From Minisyncoccota bacterium (GTDB lineage: Bacteria > Patescibacteriota > Minisyncoccia > Phycocordibacterales > VMEP01): a stretch of DNA of 64,000 nt. The translations under genes were made by a program, and so were the position numbers. Positions 4,191-56,284 of this stretch are shown here, piece after piece; positions within the stretch are counted from its first letter, which is position 1; each line of letters opens with the position of its first letter. The stretch is taken from positions 234,101 to 298,100 of the forward strand of contig JBAZUR010000001.1 in the NCBI GenBank assembly GCA_041661305.1, written 5' to 3'. Under the pieces are notes generated by a model. The model was not told where the DNA came from, searched no databases, and saw only the letters and a list, made by a program, of their open reading frames with translations.

Positions 4191-4303
4191 TTGTGGATTA
4201 TCTCACACCGAAACACCTCAGGTCAATTTTTTATAAAATTCATATTTAATTCCTTTTCTTTCTTCATTAAAACATAGTAATCTTTTTGTATTTAAACACT
4301 CTC

Positions 4304-4393
4304 AAAATACCTCCTAAAAACATTGCGCAGTGCGACGGCACGAGCATAGTAAATTTTCAGCAGAAAATTATACGCGTTTTTGGGAGGTATTTT
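4304..4393 (+). repeat. Copy A of the dispersed structured repeat family (AGCA-loop element)
   Basis: Outer 18-bp inverted repeat AAAATACCTCCTAAAAAC / GTTTTTGGGAGGTATTTT. Core CATTGCGCAGTGCGACGGCACGAGCATAG. Inner hairpin AATTTTC-AGCA-GAAAATT followed by TATACGCG. Related copies lie at 22699-22788, 22090-22220, 47631-47717, 13700-13850 and 40760-40850. Confidence 0.7.
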
Positions 4394-9600: not shown

Positions 9601-10656
9601 CTATTCGTCTTCTCGGTCGGGTCCTTCCAATATTGGAATTTCGAGTCCTGGGCTCATTCCAGTAATACGTAAAACATCCTTGTCTACCTTCTTCAATTCC
9701 CTTCCAGAAGAATTGTAATGATTGGTCACTGTTTTCAATGAATTCCCAAGCTTGCTGTGATATTCTTCGTACCCTTTTAAATGCTTTCCAAGCTCCTCCA
9801 CCCTCCTTACAATATCTTTTGCGGTCTCTTCAATCTGCATTGCTTTAAGCCCCTGAAGGACTGTTTGTAAGTATGCGAGGAATGATGTTGGAGAAACAAT
9901 AATGACGTGATACTTCCCTGCCGCGCGTTGTATCAAATTCTCTTCGTTCTCTTTTATTGAACCAACCTTATTCACCAAAAGATCATAATAAATCGCTTCG
10001 TGTGGGATAAACATAAAAGCGAAGTCCATCGTTCCCTCGTTCGGGCGAATATATTTTGCCGTTTCAGAAATACGTAATTTCAAATCGTTTAAGAACAGCT
10101 TTGCTAGACGCTCACGCTCCGCTGGATTTTTTTCGTCAATAACACGATTATAATTTTCAAGAGAAAACTTCGAGTCAACAGGAATTATTTTATCTTTTAC
10201 AAAAACAACTGCGTCAACAATTTCTCCGTCTCCAAATGCGTACTGCATTTGATAATCATTAGGAGCCATTACGTTCTTGAGTAATGTTTCCAAATAGTAT
10301 TCCCCCAAAACACCTCTTTGTTTTGGATTCTTCAAAATATCCTGCAATCCTTGAAGCTGATCTGTGACGGAAATAACCTGCTTGTTCGTTTCATCAAGAC
10401 GAGTCAACTTCTCGGTAATATCGCGAATTAAACTCTGCGATTCCACAAATTGATGCCTAACAGCTTCCTGCATATCTTTATTAGACGCGCCAAGCTTGTC
10501 ATCCATCGTCTTCGCCAAAGTCGCGAGTTGGTTTTGAATAAGTAAAAGACTATCAGTTTCAACTGCTGGTTTCCCCTGTTTTGCTGTGATTATCCAAACA
10601 ACAAAAGCTCCGATAAAAACACCAATGACTACAAAAATAATAGTTCCAACTTCCAT
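9601..10656 (-). CDS. rmuC: DNA recombination protein RmuC
   Basis: 351 aa. N-terminal TM helix, long coiled coil, and a conserved C-terminal RmuC nuclease-like region (DFAFMFIPHEAIYYDL). Confidence 0.8.
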   Translation of the reverse strand: MEVGTIIFVVIGVFIGAFVVWIITAKQGKPAVETDSLLLIQNQLATLAKTMDDKLGASNKDMQEAVRHQFVESQSLIRDITEKLTRLDETNKQVISVTDQLQGLQDILKNPKQRGVLGEYYLETLLKNVMAPNDYQMQYAFGDGEIVDAVVFVKDKIIPVDSKFSLENYNRVIDEKNPAERERLAKLFLNDLKLRISETAKYIRPNEGTMDFAFMFIPHEAIYYDLLVNKVGSIKENEENLIQRAAGKYHVIIVSPTSFLAYLQTVLQGLKAMQIEETAKDIVRRVEELGKHLKGYEEYHSKLGNSLKTVTNHYNSSGRELKKVDKDVLRITGMSPGLEIPILEGPDREDE

Positions 10657-10666
10657 GAGAAATATT

Positions 10667-11452
10667 TTACCACAACGAAGCTGTTCCCCCTCCTTTTTTC
10701 TTTGGCATCACTTCGGAAACGGCTTCACGATACAAGCAATAATCACAATCTTCAGATTCTTTTGGTGGTTCATCAAGAAGTAAACATTTCTTCGCCCCAA
10801 TTAGAGCTTCCTCAATCCACTCATCCGAACCTTTGTAAGGAATGACTTTCACATTAAATTCAAGCTTGGCGTCAAAAGCTTCTTTATCTGAGATGCCGTT
10901 GCAGTAGACGAAATACCCCACGTTTGAAACAATATGATCATTTTGGCGTAGAAGCCACTGATACACCTCCATTTGTCGCTTATATCCATCTTGCCATTCA
11001 GCATCAAGAGACACTTCCCCTTCTTTACTTGTCGCTTTGTAGTCAACAACCATTATCTCGCCGGACGGCGCTTCCCAAATATCATCCACCGCACCAGTCA
11101 CGACGAAATTTGTTTTCTTGTGTAAATATCGCACCCCGACAAAGTTGTTTCGCCAATCCTCTAAATTATCGTGCTTGAAAGGGACAGCGTCGATTTTGTA
11201 ATTTGTCATCAAAGGATGAGCTATTCCTTTGGCGCGATAAATATCAAACTCTTTTTTAAGAAGCTTATCTACGGCAGAGTTTAGAGAAAAAGGAAAACCT
11301 GGTGGCCTCCCTACCCCGAGTCTTCGGTCTAAATAAAAGCATCTTGGACACTCTAAAAATAAATCAATTTTTGAACGCGAGAGCGCAAATGGTTCGGCGC
11401 TATCAGGACTAAATTTATTCTTGGTTCGGCGCGGATTGTAATATTGGGACAT
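10667..11452 (-). CDS. PD-(D/E)XK nuclease family protein (Cas4-like), second copy
   Basis: 261 aa. LECPRCFYL N-terminal Cys pair, VVDYKATSKEGE (D-x-K core), and C-terminal CDYCLYREAV Cys cluster. Confidence 0.65.
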   Translation of the reverse strand: MSQYYNPRRTKNKFSPDSAEPFALSRSKIDLFLECPRCFYLDRRLGVGRPPGFPFSLNSAVDKLLKKEFDIYRAKGIAHPLMTNYKIDAVPFKHDNLEDWRNNFVGVRYLHKKTNFVVTGAVDDIWEAPSGEIMVVDYKATSKEGEVSLDAEWQDGYKRQMEVYQWLLRQNDHIVSNVGYFVYCNGISDKEAFDAKLEFNVKVIPYKGSDEWIEEALIGAKKCLLLDEPPKESEDCDYCLYREAVSEVMPKKKGGGTASLW

Positions 11453-11963: not shown

Positions 11964-12078
11964 TTTTCTTTTTGTTTCTAGTGTTGCCTGCCCCGTACTA
12001 AGCTTTGCTCTAGTACGGGCTTGACATATCCCTCTTTTCTGGTATGATATCAGGAGGTTACTTCATGGAGGATTTGTC

Positions 12079-12342
12079 ATGGCGACCGAGCCGTTTCACC
12101 AGAAGCTTGCCGAGCAAATTTTTTCGAAAATGACTGCGGATCACGTAACGTCGTTTGACGAAAACGTCTTCTACAAAGACCTTTACCGTCTTTTGCAACG
12201 AAACAACGCATTCGACGGAAAGGGTTACCACGGGCGAAAAATCAAACCGCTCGTGATGAAGATGTACGAAGGATACAAGGTTCCTCTCAAAGCGCCGACT
12301 GAAGCGCCCGTGCAAGAGAGCCTCGACCTCTTCGCTACGTAA
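12079..12342 (+). CDS. Hypothetical protein (87 aa) in a GC-rich island
   Basis: GGAGGA Shine-Dalgarno 6 nt upstream of the ATG. The ORF is about 50% GC versus about 38% in flanking DNA. It is followed by terminator GCGCCCCATCATGGGGCGCTATTTTTTT. Confidence 0.5.
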   Translation: MATEPFHQKLAEQIFSKMTADHVTSFDENVFYKDLYRLLQRNNAFDGKGYHGRKIKPLVMKMYEGYKVPLKAPTEAPVQESLDLFAT

Positions 12343-12360
12343 TTCCGCTCGCGTAGCAAA

Positions 12361-12392
12361 CCGCGCCCCATCATGGGGCGCTATTTTTTTGC
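12361..12392 (+). terminator. Rho-independent terminator after the 12079 gene
   Basis: Sequence CCGCGCCCCATCATGGGGCGC followed by TATTTTTTT. Confidence 0.7.
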
Positions 12393-12414
12393 CTAATATA
12401 TTTAAGAACATAAT

Positions 12415-12464
12415 CAACACATACACTATAATCTTGCTATAGCAAGATTATAGTGTATGTGTTG
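12415..12464. repeat. Perfect 50-bp palindrome (23-bp arms, TATA centre)
   Basis: CAACACATACACTATAATCTTGC-TATA-GCAAGATTATAGTGTATGTGTTG has exact reverse-complement arms. Confidence 0.9.
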
Positions 12465-12539
12465 AACCAAGTTTTTTGCCTAAATATTAAAAACAAGGCC
12501 ACCCGATATGGGTGGCAAATTCAAAACGTTGTTCGTGAT

Positions 12540-12695
12540 CTATTTCCAGCTCTCAAAGGAGTCGGTTTCGACCATCATGGGTACTTGATCCGGCTCAACT
12601 TCGGTCAGAGCCAGCGTGTCTTCTTCGAGAAGGTCGGCGATGAACTCCTCAACTGCCTGGGCAAAATTACCCCAGAGATTCTTCAAAAACTTCAT
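12540..12695 (-). CDS. Small acidic hypothetical protein (51 aa)
   Basis: MKFLKNLWGNFAQAVEEFIADLLEEDTLALTEVEPDQVPMMVETDSFESWK. GGGGGAGG Shine-Dalgarno 6-8 nt upstream. A TTCCCA-17-TATTAT promoter-like element lies upstream. A downstream hairpin GCCACCCATATCGGGTGGC plus T-run follows on the minus strand. GC-rich. Confidence 0.4.
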   Translation of the reverse strand: MKFLKNLWGNFAQAVEEFIADLLEEDTLALTEVEPDQVPMMVETDSFESWK

Positions 12696-12825
12696 GGCTG
12701 TTTCCTCCCCCGATAAGTTGAACAAAACTACCTCATTTATAATACCACGAGAGTTGAGGGATGGGAAGAGTGGAAAAATGCGCATCAAACCCCAACACCC
12801 CAAAGCTCTATGATATAATTTTTTT

Positions 12826-13618: not shown

Positions 13619-13699
13619 GAGAAGTGGTCACGCATAATTTTCTAAGGCTTTGCAAATTTTAATGGTCACAAGTCACTAAGTTTTTTGTAGCTAACCACT

Positions 13700-13850
13700 A
13701 CAGAGAACCGCGAGTACGCTTCGGTCACGGATAAATTTTTGCTAAAATTTTCCGCTACCCCGACTCGCGCCGTCACGCTCCGTCTTTCGATTCTCTGACG
13801 CGAGTAAAGTGATTTACTCGCTTAGGGTCGCAAAAATTGGGCTTTGCTAA
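13700..13850 (-). repeat. tRNA-Glu-proximal copy of the AGCA-loop repeat family, with an additional partial fragment at 13621-13665
   Basis: In minus orientation: CAGAGAATCGAAAGACGGAGCGTGACGGCGCGAGTCGGGGTAGCGG, then the hairpin AAAATTTT-AGCA-AAAATTT, then TATCCGTGACC...CGGTTCTCTG. The outer stem CAGAGAA/TTCTCTG resembles the tRNA-Glu T-stem. This copy is close to the one at 40760-40850. Confidence 0.6.
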
Positions 13851-13856
13851 TTTTTG

Positions 13857-13928
13857 CGACCCTACAGAGAATCGAACTCTGATTCCCGCCTTGAGAAGGC
13901 GGTGTCCTAACCGTTAGACGATAGGGCC
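13857..13928 (-). tRNA. tRNA-Glu (anticodon CUC)
   Basis: GGCCCUAUCGUCUAACGGUUAGGACACCGCCUUCUCAAGGCGGGAAUCAGAGUUCGAUUCUCUGUAGGGUCG folds as a cloverleaf with a 7-bp acceptor, D-arm, anticodon loop UUCUCAA and T-loop UUCGAUU. It resembles E. coli tRNA-Glu. CCA is not encoded. Confidence 0.8.
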
Positions 13929-21924: not shown

Positions 21925-22089
21925 AATTGGCCAATTATACCGTTTTTAATAAAAAAACGAAAATCATAATGATTTTTTTATAATTATTTATTATTAAGCT
22001 TTTGCATTAAAAAACACACATGTCCGCCCCTGCTGTAAAAGTCGCGCGTCAATGGACGGTCGTGCGACATGATTTCGCCTAAATCATAT

Positions 22090-22220
22090 TCTCGTGCCAC
22101 GCATAATTTCTTGCTAGAAATTAGCTCGGCCCCGACTCGCCTCGTCAGGCTCCGTCTCTCAATTGCTTCACATATCGCAATTGAGCGTCGCACTGCGCAA
22201 TGTTTTTTGAGGGGTATTTT
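22090..22220 (-). repeat. Copy C of the AGCA-loop repeat family (a longer variant)
   Basis: In minus orientation: AAAATACCCCTCAAAAAACATTGCGCAGTGCGACG, then an inserted hairpin CTCAATTGC..GCAATTGAG, then GACGGAGCCTGACGAGGCGAGTCGGGGCCGAGC, then the hairpin TAATTTCT-AGCA-AGAAATTA, then TATGCGTGGCACGAG. Confidence 0.6.
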
Positions 22221-22294
22221 GGTGATATTGAATTCAAAAATACAACTCGCTTGGATTTTAGGAAAACACAGATGAGCCTGCTACAATTTAATAT

Positions 22295-22698: not shown

Positions 22699-22788
22699 GA
22701 GATACTATAGAAAGACATTGCGCAGTGCGACGGCACGAGCATAGCAAAAACTTAGCAAAGTTTTATGTGTGTCTTTCGATAGTATCTC
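22699..22788 (+). repeat. Copy B of the AGCA-loop repeat family
   Basis: Outer stem GAGATACTATAGAAAGACA / TGTGTCTTTCGATAGTATCTC. Core CATTGCGCAGTGCGACGGCACGAGCATAG identical to copy A. Inner hairpin AAAACTT-AGCA-AAGTTTT, which is compensatory relative to copy A. It is flanked by the direct repeats GTATCTCGAAAAAAA at 22663-22677 and 22779-22793. Confidence 0.7.
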
Positions 22789-25377: not shown

Positions 25378-26169
25378 TCAATTGATTAGTACCTCAACAA
25401 GTTTTAATTCCTGCATATTAAACGGGGTCTTCAGCAAGATAACCTGAAAAGGGCTTCGTGGATCATTCACAACTGCACCAACCGTAGCAATCAAAAATGG
25501 GTTGAGTCCTAAAGAAACAACTTGTGCATCAACAGGAACATTAACATCCCTCGGAAGAGTAGCTTCAAAATTGCCGTTTCCTAAACCACGTAAAGAGACG
25601 CTTATATTGCCTTCAGATATTAGCCCTGCAGTTATCTTTCCTGGTGAAGAAAACATTTCAACTTTGGAAGTGGCGTCACCAACATTAAAAACTTCGCCAA
25701 CAACCGTACCTCCATATGTCAAAACCTGAGCTCCATTAACTATTCCACTATCAACCCCAACATCAAGGACCATGGTGTCATACGGAGAACGATTTGGTTT
25801 TGCAATTATTGCAGCGAGTACTGATCTTTTTTCAGATTTTCTCCCAAGAATATCCTTGAGTTCTGTGTTTTCCTGTGCCAATCTATCTCGCTCAAGAGAA
25901 AGAAGAGCAAAGCCAACATGTTCTGCTTTTAGGCGTGTATTTTCTTGAGAAAGTGAATTCTTAAACTGTATTGCTGACCAAAAACCAGAAAAGAAACTAG
26001 CAACACCGTCCTTTCCTTCAGAAACCAAAGCCAAAGAATTTTGAGTGCTATTTCCAAGCTGTGCAACAAACCCTTTCGCATAAACACCAGACACCACAAT
26101 GAGAGTGAGGGCAATCACAGGAACAAATACTTTAAAATAATTTTTCTTTTTATCTCGGTGGTAAATCAT
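25378..26169 (-). CDS. mreC: Rod shape-determining protein MreC
   Basis: N-terminal TM, coiled coil, and a C-terminal beta domain. Start placed at the internal ATG to avoid a long overlap with mreB. Confidence 0.8.
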   Translation of the reverse strand: MIYHRDKKKNYFKVFVPVIALTLIVVSGVYAKGFVAQLGNSTQNSLALVSEGKDGVASFFSGFWSAIQFKNSLSQENTRLKAEHVGFALLSLERDRLAQENTELKDILGRKSEKRSVLAAIIAKPNRSPYDTMVLDVGVDSGIVNGAQVLTYGGTVVGEVFNVGDATSKVEMFSSPGKITAGLISEGNISVSLRGLGNGNFEATLPRDVNVPVDAQVVSLGLNPFLIATVGAVVNDPRSPFQVILLKTPFNMQELKLVEVLIN

Positions 26170-27205
26170 CTTGTTTTTCAATAAGAATATCCTGATGGAA
26201 AACAAGGTCTTCCAAAATAATTCCAGTTCCTCTCGCTACAGCCGAAAGAGGATCGTCAGAAATATAAACTGGAATCTTCAAAACGCTATTGAGGTATGGG
26301 GCAAGTCCTTGAATAAGAGCTCCTCCTCCAACCAAGACGATACCACGATTCATAATATCGGATGTAACTTCGGGTGGTGTTCGTTCAAGCACCTCTTTAA
26401 CTGAATCCATCAAATTACCAATGGATGCGGAAATCGCTTCTCTAATGTCAGCGTCGGTGACTATAACTTCGCGAGGTAATCCTGTTATCAAGTCTCGTCC
26501 TTTTATTGATGACTCAATTGTCTCTCCTGTATCGAAAACAGAACCAATTGCAATCTTTACGCCTTCAGCTGTTTTCTCCCCTATCAATATTTTAAACTCA
26601 TCACGCAAATACGAAATAATATCTTCATTCAATCTATCTCCGGCAATTTTCAGATTTTTCGAAGCAACAATACCACCAAGAGAAATGACGGCAATGTCTG
26701 TTGTTCCACCACCAATATCAATAATCATTGAACCAACAGGATCTTTAACAGGAAGACGAATTCCAATCGCTGCAGCCATTGGTTCCTCAACAATGTGCAC
26801 TTCGCGAGCGCCAGCGTTCCTGGTTGCATCATAAACCGCGCGAATCTCCACGTTGGTAATACCGGAAGGCACACCCACAACAACGCGAGGGCGAATTGGT
26901 TTTTTTGCAATACGGTCAGCTTTGTTGATTAGATAAGCAATCATCTCCTCTGTCACTTCAAAGTCAGATATAACTCCATCAACCAATGGACGAATGGCCT
27001 TGATATGCCCTGGCGTACGTCCCAACATTTGCTTTGCTTCCATACCGACAGCAACAACTTGTCCCGTTTTTTGATTAACAGCGACAACAGACGGTTCGTT
27101 GATAACAATGCCGTGCCCTTTCAGATAAACAAGCGTATTTGCAGTACCAAGATCAATACCGATATCGTTTGAGAAAACTGAGTAAATTTTGTCGAATGGT
27201 TTCAT
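26150..27205 (-). CDS. mreB: Rod shape-determining protein MreB
   Basis: 351 aa actin-like ATPase (IGIDLGTANTLVY, DIGGGTTD). Confidence 0.9.
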   Translation of the reverse strand: MKPFDKIYSVFSNDIGIDLGTANTLVYLKGHGIVINEPSVVAVNQKTGQVVAVGMEAKQMLGRTPGHIKAIRPLVDGVISDFEVTEEMIAYLINKADRIAKKPIRPRVVVGVPSGITNVEIRAVYDATRNAGAREVHIVEEPMAAAIGIRLPVKDPVGSMIIDIGGGTTDIAVISLGGIVASKNLKIAGDRLNEDIISYLRDEFKILIGEKTAEGVKIAIGSVFDTGETIESSIKGRDLITGLPREVIVTDADIREAISASIGNLMDSVKEVLERTPPEVTSDIMNRGIVLVGGGALIQGLAPYLNSVLKIPVYISDDPLSAVARGTGIILEDLVFHQDILIEKQDDLPPR

Positions 27206-31512: not shown

Positions 31513-32526
31513 CTATCGCTTCGCGATTATCGACTTTTTGTAAACATCGAGGTGCTCAAGTGCGATTCCAGTCCCCTTCGCCACACAATACAATGGGTCC
31601 TCGGCCATAGTCGCCTTAACTCCAGTGCGACGAAAAACAAGTTCTGGAAAATTACGAAGCATAGAGGTTCCTCCGGTCATGATTATTCCATTATCTATAA
31701 TATCCGCCGAGAGCTCTGGTGGAGTATCCTGAAGAACGTCTTTAATCGCTTTTATCATCTGTCTTAGTTCTTTATCTATCGCCTTAACGATTTCATTTGT
31801 TGAAATTTGTGCAGTACGTGGAAGTCCTGCGATGAAATCGCGACCTTTGATGGTCATCGTCAATTCTTCGTCCATTGGCGTTGCCGAACCAATCTGAATT
31901 TTTATATCTTCTGCTGTCTTGTCTCCGATAGCCAAGTTAAAAGTTTTTTTAATGTAATCCGTAATTGCAGCATCAATACGATTGCCTGCGCACTTCACAG
32001 AGTTTGATGCAACAATCCCACCGAGCGAAATAACAGCAACGTCTGTCGTACCACCACCAATATCAACAACCATATGCCCTCGAGGTTCATGAATTGGAAT
32101 ACCTGCGCCGATTGCCGCCAAAATTGGTTCCTTCACAACATAGGCGTTTTTTGCCCCAGCTTTAATTGCAGCCTCCACGACAGCACGACGTTCTGTTGAC
32201 GTTACCCCCGCAGGAACAGAAACCATCACCTCTGGTTTAAAAATACTAAACTTCCCCATCGCCTTACCAATATAATAACGAAGCATCGCTTCGGTCACGC
32301 GATAATCAGCAATCACACCATCTCTCATTGGTCGATAAGCAATAATGCTATCTGGAGTTTTACCAATCATATCTTTTGCTTCAATACCAACAGCCAAAAT
32401 TTTGTTTTCTTGTTCAGAAACAGCAACAACTGAAGGTTCGTTTAAAACAACTCCCTTTCCAGGAAGGTACACGAGGGTATTTGCTGTCCCTAAATCTATT
32501 CCAAGTTTTTTTGTAAAAAATGACAT
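31513..32526 (-). CDS. MreB-like actin homolog (second copy)
   Basis: 337 aa. LGIDLGTANTLVY, DIGGGTTD. Stand-alone, not next to mreCD. Confidence 0.85.
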   Translation of the reverse strand: MSFFTKKLGIDLGTANTLVYLPGKGVVLNEPSVVAVSEQENKILAVGIEAKDMIGKTPDSIIAYRPMRDGVIADYRVTEAMLRYYIGKAMGKFSIFKPEVMVSVPAGVTSTERRAVVEAAIKAGAKNAYVVKEPILAAIGAGIPIHEPRGHMVVDIGGGTTDVAVISLGGIVASNSVKCAGNRIDAAITDYIKKTFNLAIGDKTAEDIKIQIGSATPMDEELTMTIKGRDFIAGLPRTAQISTNEIVKAIDKELRQMIKAIKDVLQDTPPELSADIIDNGIIMTGGTSMLRNFPELVFRRTGVKATMAEDPLYCVAKGTGIALEHLDVYKKSIIAKR

Positions 32527-40044: not shown

Positions 40045-40470
40045 TTAAAGCACAGCTGAAATTTCCCTAAGAACGTCCTCAATCTCAGAATCGGACATAA
40101 CTGCTCTTTCGTTGCCATTGTGGTCTAGATCGCCAATTCTCACTTCTGGAATAACATGATTGTGAAGGTGTGGAATTGATTTAGATGTATTGTCTCCTTC
40201 CCTCTCTAAAACGGACATATTTTTATATCCAAGTTTTTTAAAAATCTTAAGCGCTTCTTCCTGTAAAAAATCCATATCTAAAATCTCCTTTTCAGAGAGA
40301 CCAAGAATTATTTCTTCGTGCCTAAATGGCACAACCAATAAATGGTGTTTATGATATGGCGCCAGCGCATAGGTTAAGTAAGCGGTTTCTGTTTTTAAAA
40401 TGTGACGCCCATTCCCGTTGTCGCAAAATGGACATTTGTCTAAATTCTGAAGAAAATCTTTGTATAACAT
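40045..40470 (-). CDS. HIT family (histidine triad) hydrolase
   Basis: 141 aa. CPFC zinc motif and HLHNHVIP histidine triad. Confidence 0.75.
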   Translation of the reverse strand: MLYKDFLQNLDKCPFCDNGNGRHILKTETAYLTYALAPYHKHHLLVVPFRHEEIILGLSEKEILDMDFLQEEALKIFKKLGYKNMSVLEREGDNTSKSIPHLHNHVIPEVRIGDLDHNGNERAVMSDSEIEDVLREISAVL

Positions 40471-40603
40471 GAAAAATAGTATACCTCACGAAAGATAATG
40501 AATAAACTTTTCATTTTTCTATTTTTTTGATAGCATACTAGCCACATTCCGGAGTAGTTGAAATGCGAATAAATAGAGCATTTCTACCACTCCGCATAAT
40601 ATA

Positions 40604-40675
40604 TTCCGGAGTAGCTCAGCGGTAGAGCGGTCGCCTGTTAAGCGATTGGTCACAGGTTCGAATCCTGTCTCCGGA
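40604..40675 (+). tRNA. tRNA-Asn (anticodon GUU)
   Basis: UCCGGAGUAGCUCAGCGGUAGAGCGGUCGCCUGUUAAGCGAUUGGUCACAGGUUCGAAUCCUGUCUCCGGAG has a 7-bp acceptor, D-arm GCUC/GAGC, anticodon loop CUGUUAA and T-loop UUCGAAU. CCA is not encoded. Confidence 0.85.
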
Positions 40676-40687
40676 GTTGCCAAAAGT

Positions 40688-40715
40688 AAGACGCCCCAAA
40701 AGGGCGTTTTTACTT
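40688..40715 (+). terminator. Rho-independent terminator after tRNA-Asn
   Basis: GACGCCCCAAAAGGGCGTTTTTACTTTTG. Confidence 0.6.
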
Positions 40716-40759
40716 TTGTTGCAACTCCGAGAGAGCAAGTGGCTTAAGCCACTTGCGTG

Positions 40760-40850
40760 CAGGATTCGAAAGCCGGAGCGCGACGGCGCGAGGCGGGGTC
40801 GCAGAATTTTTCAGCAGAAAAATATCTGTGACCGGACTGTCTCCGGAGCA
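40760..40850 (+). repeat. tRNA-Asn-proximal copy of the AGCA-loop repeat family
   Basis: GGATTCGAAAGCCGGAGCGCGACGGCGCGAGGCGGGGTCGCAG, then the hairpin AATTTTTC-AGCA-GAAAAAT, then ATCTGTGACCGGACTGTCTCCGGAG. The outer stem CCGGAG/CTCCGG reuses the tRNA-Asn acceptor sequence and ends with an exact 12-nt copy of the tRNA 3' end. Confidence 0.6.
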
Positions 40851-41109
40851 TTAAAAACAAAGCCGCCCTTCGTGGGCGTTTTTTGTTTTTAACTACTTGG
40901 TGCGGGATTCAAACCGAAGGCGCCTAAAAATAAGGAGTGGAACGACTATATTTTTAGTGCGTTTCGAGGCTTTGCGAGAGGCGAATCCCGTCTTATTTAT
41001 CCGTGGCCGAATCCAGTTCTCCGGAAATATTCTAAATCTTTGCTTTAGGTAGCCAACTTTTTTAACCTAAATATGGTCCCAAATTTTGGTATACTTCATA
41101 TAAGAATCT

Positions 41110-41610
41110 ATGAATAAATATTTAATAGCAGTCCTCAGTATTTTCCTTCTTGTTATAACAACTTGGTACTTTTTCGCATCACGTCCTTCGACCCCCTCTA
41201 TCTCGATAGAGTCTGGCAAATCCATTAAGCTATATTTTTATAACCCAACTCTAGACCAGGGTCCTGGTGGCGTACAATGCAGTAAAAACGGACTCGTAGC
41301 TGTTCAGCGGGTCATTCCGGAAACAACGACTCCCCTCGCGGACACAATAAAGCTTCTTCTCCGTGGTGAAATTTCCGATAAGGAGCGGGCATCGGGAATT
41401 GAAAGTGAGTTCCCGCTTCCAGATGTCACACTTAAAAGTGCAACTATTACCAATGGAGTTGCCACACTCGTATTCGACGACCCGCAAAACAAAACAGGCG
41501 GTGGTTCTTGTCGGGTTGCCATTTTGTGGGCACAAATTGAGGCAACGACAAAACAATTTCCAACAGTTAACAACGTTCGCTTCATACCCGAAGAATTGTT
41601 TCAACCATAA
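41110..41610 (+). CDS. GerMN domain-containing (sporulation/germination-like) secreted protein
   Basis: 166 aa. N-terminal signal/TM, then YFYNPTLDQGPGGVQCSKNGLVAVQRV...GGGSCRVAILWAQIEATTKQFPTVNNVRF, matching the GerMN domain pattern. Confidence 0.55.
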   Translation: MNKYLIAVLSIFLLVITTWYFFASRPSTPSISIESGKSIKLYFYNPTLDQGPGGVQCSKNGLVAVQRVIPETTTPLADTIKLLLRGEISDKERASGIESEFPLPDVTLKSATITNGVATLVFDDPQNKTGGGSCRVAILWAQIEATTKQFPTVNNVRFIPEELFQP

Positions 41611-41679
41611 AACTGTCTATCCTGTCTCAGCATCAACCCCTCTTAACTAATCGGAAGTAATTACGGTATTATTCTTATC

Positions 41680-47630: not shown

Positions 47631-47717
47631 TTTTTCCCTTAAAAAACGCGCATATCCGCCTGCTGGCGGATTGCTATGCTCGTATCGCCATACTGCGCAA
47701 TGTTTTTTAAGGGAAAA
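47631..47717 (-). repeat. Copy D of the AGCA-loop repeat family
   Basis: In minus orientation: TTTTCCCTTAAAAAACATTGCGCAGTATGGCGATACGAGCATAG, then the hairpin ATCCGCC-AGCA-GGCGGAT (GC-rich stem, same AGCA loop), then ATGCGCG, then the outer stem partner TTTTTTAAGGGAAA. Confidence 0.7.
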
Positions 47718-54332: not shown

Positions 54333-54575
54333 GTGAGTGCTGACTTCAACGCAAATGCCATACTGAAAGGCAACGAAGACTTCGTCGCTTTTCTCCATGA
54401 ACGTGCAAGGTGGGAAAACATCCCCGCAACCTGCGACAAGAAGTGGCTTGCAGGTTTTTGGCAAAATAACAGGGGTTTGCTTTCACACCTCTTCGTTATG
54501 GAAACCGGCAAGGTGCTCTTCGTTCCAAACGATACTGCTTTCTTCCAGCAAGCCGCCGAAGCCTATCAAGGCTAG
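54333..54575 (+). CDS. Hypothetical protein (80 aa), paralog 1 of a tandem pair
   Basis: AGGAGG Shine-Dalgarno 6 nt upstream of a GTG start. KGNEDFVAFLHERARWENIPATCDKKWLAGFWQNN...QQAAEAYQG. Followed by terminator CCCCGCATCACGCGGGG plus T-run at 54594-54622. Confidence 0.5.
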   Translation: MSADFNANAILKGNEDFVAFLHERARWENIPATCDKKWLAGFWQNNRGLLSHLFVMETGKVLFVPNDTAFFQQAAEAYQG

Positions 54576-54699
54576 CTCTCTTCCGTCCCAACCAAAAACC
54601 CCGCATCACGCGGGGCTTTTTAACATATTAACGTTTTCGAAAAACATGATAGTATCAACGCAGTTGCAACTTTAACTCAACCAATCACCGGAGGGCGAA

Positions 54700-54942
54700 A
54701 TGAACACCAGTGAAATCAAAAAGGACGCAATTAAGGGCAATGAAGAATTTGTTGCGTTCTTGCACCAACACGCGAAACAGGCGAAAATTCCCAGCAGTTG
54801 CGACAAGGCATGGCTGGCGAGTGTATGGCAACGAAACAAGGTTGTTTTCATGTTTCATTTCGCTGTACAAAAAGGGGAATCAGGCTCAACCCCGCCCACT
54901 GATGAATTTCTCAGGCAGGCCGCCGAAGCCTATCAAGGCTAG
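54700..54942 (+). CDS. Hypothetical protein (80 aa), paralog 2 of a tandem pair
   Basis: GGAGGG Shine-Dalgarno upstream of the ATG. KGNEEFVAFLHQHAKQAKIPSSCDKAWLASVWQRN...RQAAEAYQG. Followed by the near-identical terminator CCCCGCATCGCGCGGGG at 54960-54988. Confidence 0.5.
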   Translation: MNTSEIKKDAIKGNEEFVAFLHQHAKQAKIPSSCDKAWLASVWQRNKVVFMFHFAVQKGESGSTPPTDEFLRQAAEAYQG

Positions 54943-55027
54943 TTCTCTTCCGTCCCAACCAAAAACCCCGCATCGCGCGGGGCTTTTTAATTTTCTAAAA
55001 GCTATCTGCCTAAAAACTAAAAGCTTC

Positions 55028-56284
55028 TTAATAATTTCTTAACCTATCTGCCTTCTCGTGTTGGCGGATTTTTTCGTGTACTTTAGCTTCAATCTGGCGA
55101 ATACGTTCACGTGTCACACCGAACTCCTGTCCCACCTCTTCAAGTGTATGCATTACTCCATCAACAAGACCATGTCTCATTTCAAGAATTTTTCTTTCCT
55201 TTGGAGAAAGATCATTTAAAATTTCTTTAACCTGATCAGAAAGAATACGGCGCGAAGATTCCTGCGCTGGAGAAAGAATAGTCTCATCAGCAATAAATTC
55301 ACCGAGAGTTGATTTGTCTTCATCATCACCGATTGGTTTTTCAAGGGAGACTGTATCTTGATTGATATTTTCAATCATGTGGATTTTTTCTACATCGATT
55401 CCCATTTCAGTTGCAATCTCTTCTGGTAATGGGTCACGTCCCAAATCTTGAGACAAACGTCGTGATACTTGTTTGTATTTAGCGATTGTTTCCACCATGT
55501 GCACAGGAATACGAATTGTTCTTGATTGATCAGCAAGAGCGCGTGTAATAGCCTGGCGAATCCACCATGTTGCATAGGTTGAAAACTTAAATCCTTTGGT
55601 CCAATCGAACTTATCAACCGCTTTATGTAAACCAAGATTTCCTTCCTGAATAAGATCGAGGAGTGTTAAGTCTGAGCTACGTCCAACGAATTTCTTTGCA
55701 ATAGAAACAACGAGGCGAAGGTTGGCGCGCCAGAGCAAATCTCTCGCTTCTTTATCCCCTTTTTCAATACGGCGGGCATACTCCTTTTCCTCATTTGCAG
55801 AAAGAAGCGGGTATTGTCCAATCTCTCTAAGATACATTTGAATAGCGTCGTACGAAGATGATTCACGGCCATAACCTCTTTTCTCTAAAATCTCTTTGGC
55901 ATCAACATCAAGTAAATTTCCACCCTCAAGAACGTCTATGCCAGCACTACCAAAGCGTTCGTAAAGTTCATCCAAAAATAAAATATTATTTTCAACGTTT
56001 GGGAATTCTTTTAAAATTTCATCATAGGTGATGAAACCACGCTTTTTACCCTTAGCGATAAGGATATCTGCTTTATCAACCAACAAATCATGCTTTGTTT
56101 TCTTTACTGGTTTTGCTGGTTTAGCCGGCTTCTTAGCCTTCACAGGTTTTTTTACAGCCACTTTCTTTACCTTCTTTGCAGGTACTTTCTTTTTTGGAGC
56201 AACCTTTTTAGCCACCTTTTTCTTAGCTGGTTTCTTCACCTTTTTTGGTGCTACTTTTGTTTTTTTGGCTTTTGCTTTTGGCAT
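55028..56284 (-). CDS. rpoD: RNA polymerase sigma-70 factor RpoD with a lysine/alanine/proline-rich N-terminal extension
   Basis: 418 aa. Regions 1.2-4.2 conserved ([29 protein letters not shown], region 4 HTH). The first roughly 60 aa read [26 protein letters not shown]... Confidence 0.9.

Follow-up and report, generated by a model that had tools for sequence, protein, structure and literature searches.

A compact structured RNA element beside tRNA genes of Patescibacteria and its probable insertion history at a tRNA-Asn locus

Introduction

Why does an intact tRNA gene stand between exact copies of both of its own ends, with no integrase gene nearby? This question is raised by the tRNA-Asn gene in a 64 kb stretch (41% G+C, hereafter the window) of the genome of a Minisyncoccota bacterium (contig JBAZUR010000001.1). 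We consider it probable that the locus represents stacked insertions of tiny, protein-less, non-autonomous elements, which home to stable-RNA genes and rebuild the displaced gene end. The element family is found almost only in Patescibacteria and is apparently undescribed, as neither Rfam nor the searchable literature offers a fitting family.

The ends of the tRNA-Asn gene are repeated beside it

Rfam and ARAGORN detect two tRNA genes in the window, tRNA-Glu (CTC) at 13857-13928 (-) and tRNA-Asn (GTT) at 40605-40676 (+). The latter is intact. It scores 73.2 bits with RF00005 (gathering threshold 29) and is placed at 40604-40677 by ARAGORN; the copies downstream are fragments only. CCA is unencoded after this gene (TTG at 40677-40679) and encoded in the related loci L140, L141, L142 and L143.

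The sequence ATTCCGGAGTAG is found at 40546-40557 and 40603-40614, and CTGTCTCCGGAG at 40665-40676 and 40837-40848 (12/12 nt in each case). All four 12-mers had been reported in the initial annotation, which gave the outer copies correctly and placed the two inner ones one position too early (40602-40613 and 40664-40675). Each 12-mer occurs exactly twice in the 64 kb at up to one mismatch, with 0.11 (ATTCCGGAGTAG) and 0.18 (CTGTCTCCGGAG) occurrences expected. Trivially, the repeats could be due to chance or to simple tandem duplication of the tRNA surroundings. The palindromic, GC-rich CTCCGGAG does favour spurious pairing, but a second 12-mer copy arose in 0/100 shuffles, the repeats lie outside any tandem array and a like architecture is found at tRNA-Glu and at more than 50 other loci. 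This explanation is hardly credible.

On the 5’ side, the upstream copy at 40546-40557 (+) consists of the leader AT and tRNA-Asn positions 1-10. It stands at the ancestral position beside the promoter/leader and is single in the syntenic relative L142. A 45-bp insert at tRNA position 10/11 follows (40558-40602, +). It comprises an ‘H’ hairpin (GAAATGC-GAATAAATAGA-GCATTTC, 40560-40584, +), an antisense copy of the tRNA-Asn 5’ end (TACCACTCCG, 40585-40594) and then CATAATAT. The second ATTCCGGAGTAG copy (40603-40614, +) is the start of the functional gene. The core module described below is absent from this insert. Hairpins of the same H type also precede full cores in L002, L012, L040 and L108.

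The 3’ side is more complex. The segment that is repeated downstream, X(1), extends from C56 to G73 of the tRNA (CGAATCCTGTCTCCGGAG, 40659-40676, +). The region 40677-40734 (+) holds a computed intrinsic terminator, a hairpin at 40688-40710 plus a T run. Its stem is extended by pairing of the tRNA 3’ end plus trailer (40672-40685) with the antisense copy TTGTTGCAACTCCG (40716-40729), of which GCAACTCCG (40721-40729) is antisense to the acceptor end plus trailer. A 22-nt side hairpin (GCAAGTGGCTT/AAGCCACTTGC, 40735-40756, +) splits the antisense copy at the acceptor/T-stem boundary, with a counterpart at the same position in the tRNA-Glu unit. The antisense copy X’ (CAGGATTCGAA, 40760-40770, +) is the exact reverse complement of the T-loop/T-stem TTCGAATCCTG (40657-40667). 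In the fold computation 40655-40775 forms one long hairpin (-75.8 kcal/mol, z = -12.9). The 65-nt core module occupies 40769-40833 (+). It is followed by X(3), the displaced copy of the tRNA 3’ end (CGGACTGTCTCCGGAG, 40833-40848, +), whose T-loop part is mutated and whose ortholog in L142 is GCCTGTCTCCGAAG, behind the distal unit. A second computed terminator lies 3’ of it (40864-40885, +). X(3) and this terminator share 72% identity over 53 nt with X(1) and the first one.

The two 3’ copies are separated by 160 nt, which contain both the terminator hairpin and the AGCA-loop element that had been annotated there. The assignment of CCGGAG to the outer stem of the AGCA-loop element does not hold, as CCGGAG at 40774-40779 belongs to the family-conserved core (helix P2a and internal loop). 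The predicted outer stem of the Asn copy pairs CUCCG.AGA (40724-40732) with UCU.CCGGAG (40840-40848).

The degenerate tRNA-Asn end copies noticed further downstream are real and make up a second, older and decayed unit (40900-41027, +), as read against the family consensus. Its 5’ part comprises an X’-like segment (GTGCGGGATTCAAACC, 40900-15), a core remnant (...GCGAGAGG) and a tRNA-end copy (CGAATCCCGTCT, 40982-93). Its 3’ part consists of a remnant of the 3’ strand of P3 (TTATTTATCCGTGGCC, 40993-41008) and another tRNA-end copy (CGAATCCAGTTCTCCGGAAA, 41008-27).

The core is a covarying three-way junction

Species-representative genomes were searched with the pattern GGAGCNNGACGNNGCGAGNCGGGG, taken from three window copies. 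At least 120 species genomes matched the exact core pattern, ~116 of them Patescibacteria and ~4 chance matches. Among the matches listed, the Patescibacteria include Saccharibacteria, Paceibacteria, Nomura-, Kaiser-, Zambryski-, Campbell- and Taylorbacteria. The module is 64-65 nt long, with 65 nt in 101/110 copies.

We used an ungapped alignment (A2) of 103 distinct copies and a covariance model (CM), R1, built in this analysis. The consensus is a three-way junction. P1 is formed by the flanks and leads via J1/2 (AAAG) into P2a (GNC/GN’C), an internal loop (GGA/GA) and P2 with the loop GACG. J2/3 (GGG) connects to P3, which carries a bulged A and the loop AGCA. P2a, P2 and P3 are 97-99.5% paired among the 103 copies, and compensatory double changes are found in 27/34 pairs. 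The covariation score is 0.451 vs 0.183 in shuffled alignments (0/500 as high) and at most 0.141 with the partners slid. RNAalifold independently recovers P2a, P2 and P3.

The Asn copy scores 98 bits with CM R1 (E 9e-28, match span 40757-40844). Here J1/2 reads AAA, P2a pairs 40772-74 with 40792-94 around the internal loop GGA/GA, and P2 pairs 40778-81 with 40786-89 under the loop GACG. J2/3 (GGG) is followed by P3 (40798-40812/40817-40832, loop AGCA) with its G.U pair, and by a terminal C. All of these parts are on the + strand.

The G.U pair at columns 47/75 is invariant (103/103 copies). On the opposite strand it would be a C-A mismatch, hence the selected structure is that of the strand co-transcribed with the tRNA, i.e. 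RNA or conceivably single-stranded DNA. Since the core is conserved, the RNA itself matters. It could be a guide or scaffold for a host factor, a ribozyme, or a device that makes the insertion harmless.

Rfam 15 contains no family that matches the element at gathering or E-value thresholds, and none matched in 12 loci with enlarged variants. Weak matches to SpF41, mir-9457 and rnk (E ≤ 10) reflect the tRNA or terminators only. Models of the hammerhead, HDV-like, twister, pistol, hatchet and hairpin ribozymes gave no Rfam match even at E ≤ 10 over 40300-41300, and the junctions AAAG and GGG do not fit a hammerhead core on reading. By eye, resemblance to the hammerhead, k-turn, SRP, tmRNA or ZTP was considered as well, and none of them fits the conserved junctions. 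A riboswitch or T-box was rejected, with no Rfam match and the module located 3’ of tRNAs and not in the 5’ leader of a regulated gene. Literature searches revealed no description of the element.

The conserved fold raises the alternative of a cis-acting RNA device of the host. X’ would toggle between the 3’ third of the tRNA (the long hairpin) and the decoy X(3) (P1 of the core), while the core would bind a protein or ligand. In this way the module would control how read-through pre-tRNA folds, is processed or decays, and the repeats would be functional parts, not scars of insertion. Strong purifying selection on structure in essentially all copies, including the invariant G.U, and the constant co-orientation with the tRNA are in line with such a device. 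So are two mutually exclusive stable folds (-75.8 and -62.4 kcal/mol for tRNA-Asn, -50.1 and -37.7 kcal/mol for tRNA-Glu), and the observation that X(3) is often identical to the tRNA over 19-23 nt while X’ drifts via G.U. However, an intrinsic terminator separates tRNA and module in the window, and the distribution of the copies given below argues against a device as well. We therefore regard this explanation as rather unlikely.

Two related modules were seen. ‘Core2’ (L097, L037, L015 and L071, with nested copies also in L003, L009, L025 and L059) has the layout X’-AAGACC..hairpin..GGTGTACAG-NNCC-TGTAAG-GGNN-X. It is flanked by antisense and sense tRNA-end copies like the core described above (core1), and composite RNAs mix core1, core2 and H hairpins. 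‘Core3’, in the first ~190 nt after tRNA-Asn of L142 and L147, starts with the AGCA-loop hairpin and carries the GACG hairpin within P3.

The tRNA-Glu gene and further copies in the window

The sole other tRNA gene of the window, tRNA-Glu, is followed by a unit of the same layout (13690-13856, -). A hairpin in which the tRNA 3’ end is paired comes first here. It is followed by a side hairpin and X’ (CAGAGAATCGAA), then by the core, and finally by a small P4 hairpin together with the sense copy TTCTCTGTAG. The core at 13712-13799 (-) reaches 84.5 bits with CM R1 and is 79% identical to the Asn copy. The long hairpin folds with -50.1 kcal/mol (z = -9.9). Both loci share the layout, each with the sequences of its own tRNA; hence both tRNAs of the window carry a device tailored to the respective tRNA. 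Look-ups with exact proteins around tRNA-Glu returned identical strains only and were uninformative.

The hairpin directly after tRNA-Glu (13825-13860, GGGTCGCAAAAATT-AGCAAAGCCC-AATTTTTGCGACCC) resembles P3 of the module including AGCA. Its 5’ strand is the tRNA’s own 3’ end GGGTCGC, and its CM scores are weak (7.7-10 bits).

In total CM R1 finds six copies in the window, three full ones (type A) and three shorter ones (type B). Type A copies lie at 40757-40844 (98 bits), 13712-13799 (84.5 bits) and 22084-22171 (69 bits), type B copies at 22704-22783 (+), 4309-4388 (+) and 47633-47714 (-) with 31-38 bits. Type B is devoid of the basal part of P3, has GACG or GGCG as P2 loop and has no adjoining tRNA. 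It sits in the loop of an 18-bp terminator-like hairpin, whose enclosing stem covaries between copies. At 22084-22250 (-) the GACG loop of a type B copy hosts a nested type A copy together with the latter’s H hairpin (CTCAATTGC...GCAATTGAG), with the junction reading ...GTGCGACG|insert|GCACGAG...

Linkage to stable-RNA genes and precision of the junction

Does the linkage to tRNA genes extend beyond the window? For 56/101 analysable copies a same-strand tRNA or transfer-messenger RNA (tmRNA) gene ends at most 200 nt upstream. The upstream tRNAs are Ser, Leu, Glu, Val, Arg, Ile, Lys, Trp, Tyr, Ala, Asp, Pro, Thr and Phe; tmRNA is found in L046 and L114. The order is constant: tRNA, hairpin/terminator, antisense X’ (T-loop to 3’ end), core and sense X. 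The antisense copy is specific to each tRNA (e.g. CAGGATTCGAA for Asn and CAGAGAATCGAA for Glu), and G.U substitutions are confined to the antisense side.

The left border of the sense copy is defined to the nucleotide. In 27/39 loci with a clear repeat it begins at C56, i.e. 19 nt before the ARAGORN 3’ end, directly after GTGAC of the core. A second junction class starts 3 nt before the tRNA end. The right border is variable, 0 to +9 nt, up to +25 and ~100 nt in L013. Overall the repeats span 12 to ~100 nt, with 18-23 nt from C56 family-wide. The antisense copy reaches 2 nt beyond the sense copy, to the complement of T54 and T55.

A mirror-image class is located upstream of tRNAs (L009, L012, L032, L035, L107 and L120). 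Here a copy of tRNA positions 1-10 or 1-26 is followed by the H hairpin, the core, a decayed tRNA remainder and the intact gene. The mirror-image arrangement also occurs in antisense partial 5S genes beside intact 5S (L002, L027).

Among the bystander tRNAs of these loci, 11/84 (13%) have a downstream unit and 3 an upstream one, and 53/156 matches are not near any tRNA. Nested copies are found in the window (22084-22250) and in L003, L009, L016, L025 and L096, and a tandem pair in L065. Moreover there are decayed remnants, and insertions in decayed tandem copies of tRNA or 5S genes beside intact copies. Cargo may lie between the tRNA and X’-core-X, 1.1 kb in L011 and 2.5 kb in L013. The latter includes three open reading frames (ORFs), one of them for a DnaJ-type zinc-finger protein, and no recombinase. 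Many contigs end inside the element (assembly breaks).

It is this distribution that speaks against a host device. Only 13% of the bystander tRNAs are occupied, copies are stacked, nested and decayed, and cargo genes stand between the X copies in L013. Moreover, copies reside in antisense partial 5S genes, in decayed tRNA copies upstream of intact genes and in loops of terminator-like hairpins far from tRNAs. A universal role in tRNA processing is likewise rejected at an occupancy of 13%.

Two other origins of the tRNA-like flanks were rejected. A tmRNA or permuted tRNA, suggested by T-loop-like flanks, does not agree with the intact tRNAs upstream, and a non-palindromic T-loop (TTCAAGT, L041) shows that the 5’ flank is antisense and no 5’ strand of a T-stem. 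Reverse transcription of mature tRNA, with a stretch like a primer binding site and a stop at m1A58, is contradicted by antisense copies that hold genomic trailer and not CCA and pass A58 to T54. CCA follows the sense copy in ~6/35 loci, no more often than chance would have it.

Empty, occupied and stacked states in relatives

Relatives of the tRNA-Asn locus were obtained by exact-protein look-ups and by a metagenome scan with the tRNA-Asn 3’ half. They proved polymorphic, with an empty 5’ site, empty 3’ sites, different or extra units and an indel of 643 bp.

The empty 5’ site is found in the syntenic L142 and L147, which have the upstream HIT-like gene and the leader in common with the window. 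They read ...TAGCCACATTCCGGAGTAGCTCAGCGG, compared with ATTCCGGAGTAG-45-bp insert-ATTCCGGAGTAG in the window. Hence the upstream 12-mers resemble a target duplication: they flank an insert at tRNA position 10/11. A strain with ~91% identity (L126, L128) carries a diverged 1-26 copy at the 5’ site, together with a different H hairpin and a full core. Empty 3’ sites, at which tRNA-Asn is followed by CCA or a plain terminator, are present in L141, L143, L145, L146, L149, L150/151 and L140/152.

L142, L147 and L153 carry a different or extra unit at tRNA-Asn. In L142 and L147 the extra unit adjoins the tRNA and consists of a perfect 20-nt antisense copy and the rearranged core (‘core3’). Downstream of it L142 has a unit with flanks orthologous to those in the window (CTCCGAAGAGCAAG...CTTGCGTACAGGATTCGAAAG...), ending in GCCTGTCTCCGAAG. 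This stacking implies that young units are nearest to the tRNA and that the distal ones are older and more mutated. In L153 CCA and a terminator come after the distal sense copy, the terminator resembling the one behind the tRNA at the empty site of L149. The distal copy is thus the displaced original tRNA end.

Another side of L153 (~4267-4330, oriented) is a partial tRNA copy, which follows the complete tRNA-Asn after 24 nt and begins at anticodon position 35/36. This position is the reported group I intron site in tRNA-Asn of the candidate phyla radiation (CPR) (PMC13011429).

The initial annotation had suggested a small non-autonomous element that targets tRNA genes, or a decayed hotspot, with repeated integration and excision. 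Copies at other tRNAs (tRNA-Glu in the window, at least 14 isotypes and tmRNA elsewhere) and the polymorphic relatives support the small element. Stacked integration is borne out by the relatives; no excision was observed. For a host device it would be unexpected that occupancy and core type differ among syntenic and among near-identical strains.

The forward-inverted-forward layout permits yet another origin. Breaks at tRNA genes could have been mended by snap-back synthesis or template switching (tandem-inversion-duplication type), with the core copied passively from elsewhere in the genome via T-loop microhomology. Hairpins at both junctions of 3’ and 5’ sites, young units with perfect antisense copies (20/20 in L142) and the antisense copy being 2 nt longer than the sense copy are all compatible with such repair scars. 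But they leave the 65-nt length, the covariation and the invariant G.U of the core unexplained, as well as the C56 single-nucleotide junction in 27/39 loci and the homologous, element-borne hairpins at tRNA-Asn of L142, L147 and L153. We consider repair scars quite improbable.

Further downstream, a segment of 643 bp (40994-41636, +) with a Germane-domain gene (41110-41610) is part of the window haplotype and absent from the haplotypes L122, L124, L127, L129, L139 and L148 (99.4% identical). It is bounded by the tRNA-Asn-end copies CGAATCCCGTCT (40982-93) and CTATCCTGTCTC (41617-28). Alone these boundary copies (X3 and X5) are not significant, with 13 expected at ≤3 mismatches; their weight comes solely from their position at the indel boundaries.

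Search for an enzyme

Such a gene-bearing segment recalls integrase islands. The repeats could be attL/attR remnants of an island or prophage that was integrated in the tRNA T-loop by a tyrosine or serine integrase and later almost wholly deleted. Repeats from the T-loop to the tRNA 3’ end, as reportedly described by Williams in 2002, are the textbook identity block of tRNA-targeting integrases, and the direct repeats of the tRNA 3’ segment found here begin in the T-loop as well. Tandem arrays of gene-end repeats at ssrA of Dehalococcoides (PMC3146451) and the 643-bp segment bounded by tRNA-end copies also fit.

However, as already annotated, no integrase is found nearby, neither in the unit and the adjacent 4 kb on both sides nor in the window ORFs examined. 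Independent deletions cannot yield a unit of ~130-170 bp with a covarying core at dozens of tRNAs in more than 100 genomes. There is no viral attP counterpart, as the core pattern is absent from 2.9 M viral contigs (0 matches; no plasmid collection was searched), and att sites of integrases have no antisense target copy. We judge it very unlikely that the repeats stem from a deleted island.

More generally, no integrase, transposase or reverse transcriptase was seen among the ORFs of the 64-kb window, those in 1-31500 being judged by reading the translations only. The unit (<200 bp) has no ORF, and no DEDD/RuvC-like recombinase was found in the window. With regard to MITEs (miniature inverted-repeat transposable elements) or repetitive extragenic palindromic (REP) sequences, neither element-specific terminal inverted repeats (TIRs) nor a target-site duplication of fixed length nor a transposase/RAYT was found. 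The ends are target-derived (X, X’), and the window has no transposase.

Proposed course of insertion

How may the units have arrived? On the 3’ side a unit would comprise a fresh X (C56 to the 3’ end), a hairpin/terminator, occasionally with up to 2.5 kb of cargo, X’ and the core of 64-65 nt. It would be placed exactly between T-loop positions 55 and 56, or in the second class 3 nt before the tRNA end. By this position the tRNA would be regenerated and its former 3’ end pushed downstream, resulting in the 12-mer direct repeat. Repeated events would stack units, of which the youngest adjoins the tRNA while the older decay. The upstream 12-mer pair would reflect a like event at tRNA position 10/11, with the 45-bp hairpin insert devoid of a core.

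Presumably X’ serves as a guide and pairs with X, such that helix P1 abuts the core junction. Next to the core, X’ agrees with the near-universal T-loop GGTTCGAATCC; this would account for tRNA or tmRNA genes of any kind serving as targets. Insertion may then proceed by recombination or strand exchange within X, performed by a factor acting in trans or by the RNA itself. In a circularised unit X(1):X’ and X’:X(3) would be one and the same helix with a hairpin cap and a core cap, i.e. a dumbbell of ~150 nt.

A more specific, tentative proposal goes further; we hold it to be rather unlikely. The core would be a candidate catalytic or recombination-guiding RNA, X’ would pair with the tRNA from T-loop to 3’ end, and strand exchange would occur exactly 5’ of C56, with the invariant G.U four pairs from the junction. 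The unit would move as a dumbbell of ~150 nt, either circular RNA or single-stranded DNA, and would be a mobile element that is guided by RNA, has no protein gene and mends the tRNA into which it inserts. At least three related core types (core1, ‘core2’ and ‘core3’) would share one logic.

Several points weigh against stacked insertions of mobile elements. No recombinase was found in the unit or the window, and no excised or circular form was observed. Copies within this genome are only 70-80% identical, speaking against a recent burst. The helices are kept by compensatory changes in nearly every copy, which is unexpected of neutrally decaying selfish copies; this suggests that each RNA copy is under selection, and a host function would be compatible with it. 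The seed pattern needed an intact P2 region, by which the sample is biased to well-preserved copies. Insertion as proposed here does not explain how both X and X’ are acquired for a new tRNA, and the forward-inverted-forward layout could also come from snap-back repair synthesis. Finally, synteny with the window is limited to the empty 5’ site and the extra-unit state and does not extend to the empty 3’ sites.

Comparison with known systems and implications

Integrase-borne islands and prophages at tRNA and tmRNA genes show the same gene regeneration and repeats from the T-loop to or past the 3’ end, with tmRNA also targeted. Stacking by successive insertions is known from the ssrA islands of Dehalococcoides (PMC3146451). 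In contrast, the present element has no integrase, phage genes or genes of integrative and conjugative elements. Its unit is only 110-170 bp in length, with an antisense target copy and a folded RNA core, and many different tRNAs are occupied within one genome.

With the bridge RNA/seekRNA of IS110/IS1111 the element has in common a structured noncoding RNA complementary to the target, structured or repeated targets and possibly the 2-nt offset at the junction. It differs by the lack of a DEDD recombinase ORF and by generating a target repeat of 18-20 nt. Bridge RNA has two guide loops (target and donor), whereas the consensus of P1, P2 and P3 is a three-way junction with one target-complementary strand: target-related sequence is confined to P1, with no separate target and donor loops.

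REP sequences and bacterial interspersed mosaic elements (BIMEs), Rickettsia palindromic elements, Correia and MITE-like elements are also short, multi-copy, hairpin-forming, protein-less and at times nested. They too are located between genes and in terminators, and occasionally in RNA genes, of reduced genomes. The element described here, however, exhibits covarying conservation across classes of a superphylum, strand specificity (G.U), target-derived flanks and no TIRs of its own.

R2 retrotransposons with HDV-like ribozymes resemble it in the insertion site in stable-RNA genes and in a helix of RNA and target flank beside a compact core. The present element, by contrast, lacks an ORF and a reverse transcriptase, resides in bacteria, matches no Rfam ribozyme model and leaves its target gene intact.

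As group I introns, too, structured RNAs are abundantly inserted in tRNA genes of Patescibacteria (PMC13011429), and the partial tRNA duplication of L153 starts at their reported 35/36 site (PMC13011429). But the functional gene is uninterrupted, 65 nt are too small, and RF00028 has no match at any window element or in the 12 loci mentioned above, with the upstream tRNA uninterrupted.

If the reading as mobile elements is true, the ultra-small CPR genomes host an abundant class of mobile elements made of little beyond a folded RNA and target copies. Insertion would take place at one T-loop phosphodiester bond of essentially any tRNA or tmRNA, with the gene restored on insertion, i.e. a natural case of programmable, base-pair-guided insertion beside tRNA genes. 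With the core, structured RNAs would gain a new family, perhaps one of ribozymes or of guides for a host enzyme, and more than 100 covarying sequences are enough for experimental design. Moreover, tRNA sites could hold gene cargo (the 643-bp Germane segment, 2.5 kb in L013), and assembly breaks and tRNA mis-annotation in metagenome-assembled genomes of CPR bacteria would find an explanation. If the host device were true instead, it would be a new mode of tRNA regulation.

Gene content and other features of the window

Genes within 4 kb of tRNA-Asn encode HIT-like, PF1765-like, S30AE, peptidyl-prolyl isomerase, formyltransferase, deformylase, Germane, GGDEF, TruB and SET proteins. Housekeeping genes of the window include two MreB, MurA, PriA, DinB, the Suf operon, RpoD, DnaG and RpoB, and by reading CysRS, DnaB, RecR, LysRS and ProRS. 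The two MreB-like genes (26150-27205, by reading, and 31513-32526, NCBIfam MreB) are ~5.3 kb apart and show ~70% DNA identity over 145 nt.

Two PD-(D/E)XK (Cas4-like) nucleases and RmuC are encoded at 520-1707, 9601-10656 and 10667-11452. According to annotation elsewhere, RmuC restricts inversions between short inverted repeats. This may be relevant to a hairpin-rich genome.

A perfect palindrome of 52 bp with overlapping arms of 29 nt (12414-12465) lies between the divergent ORFs 12058-12426 (-) and 12453-12716 (+). Finally, two 76-nt copies with 96% identity (54548-54623 and 54915-54990) are found 367 bp apart, each with a terminal terminator (CCCCGCATCACGCGGGG). They lie at the 3’ ends of the small unannotated ORFs 54397-54675 and 54710-55042.

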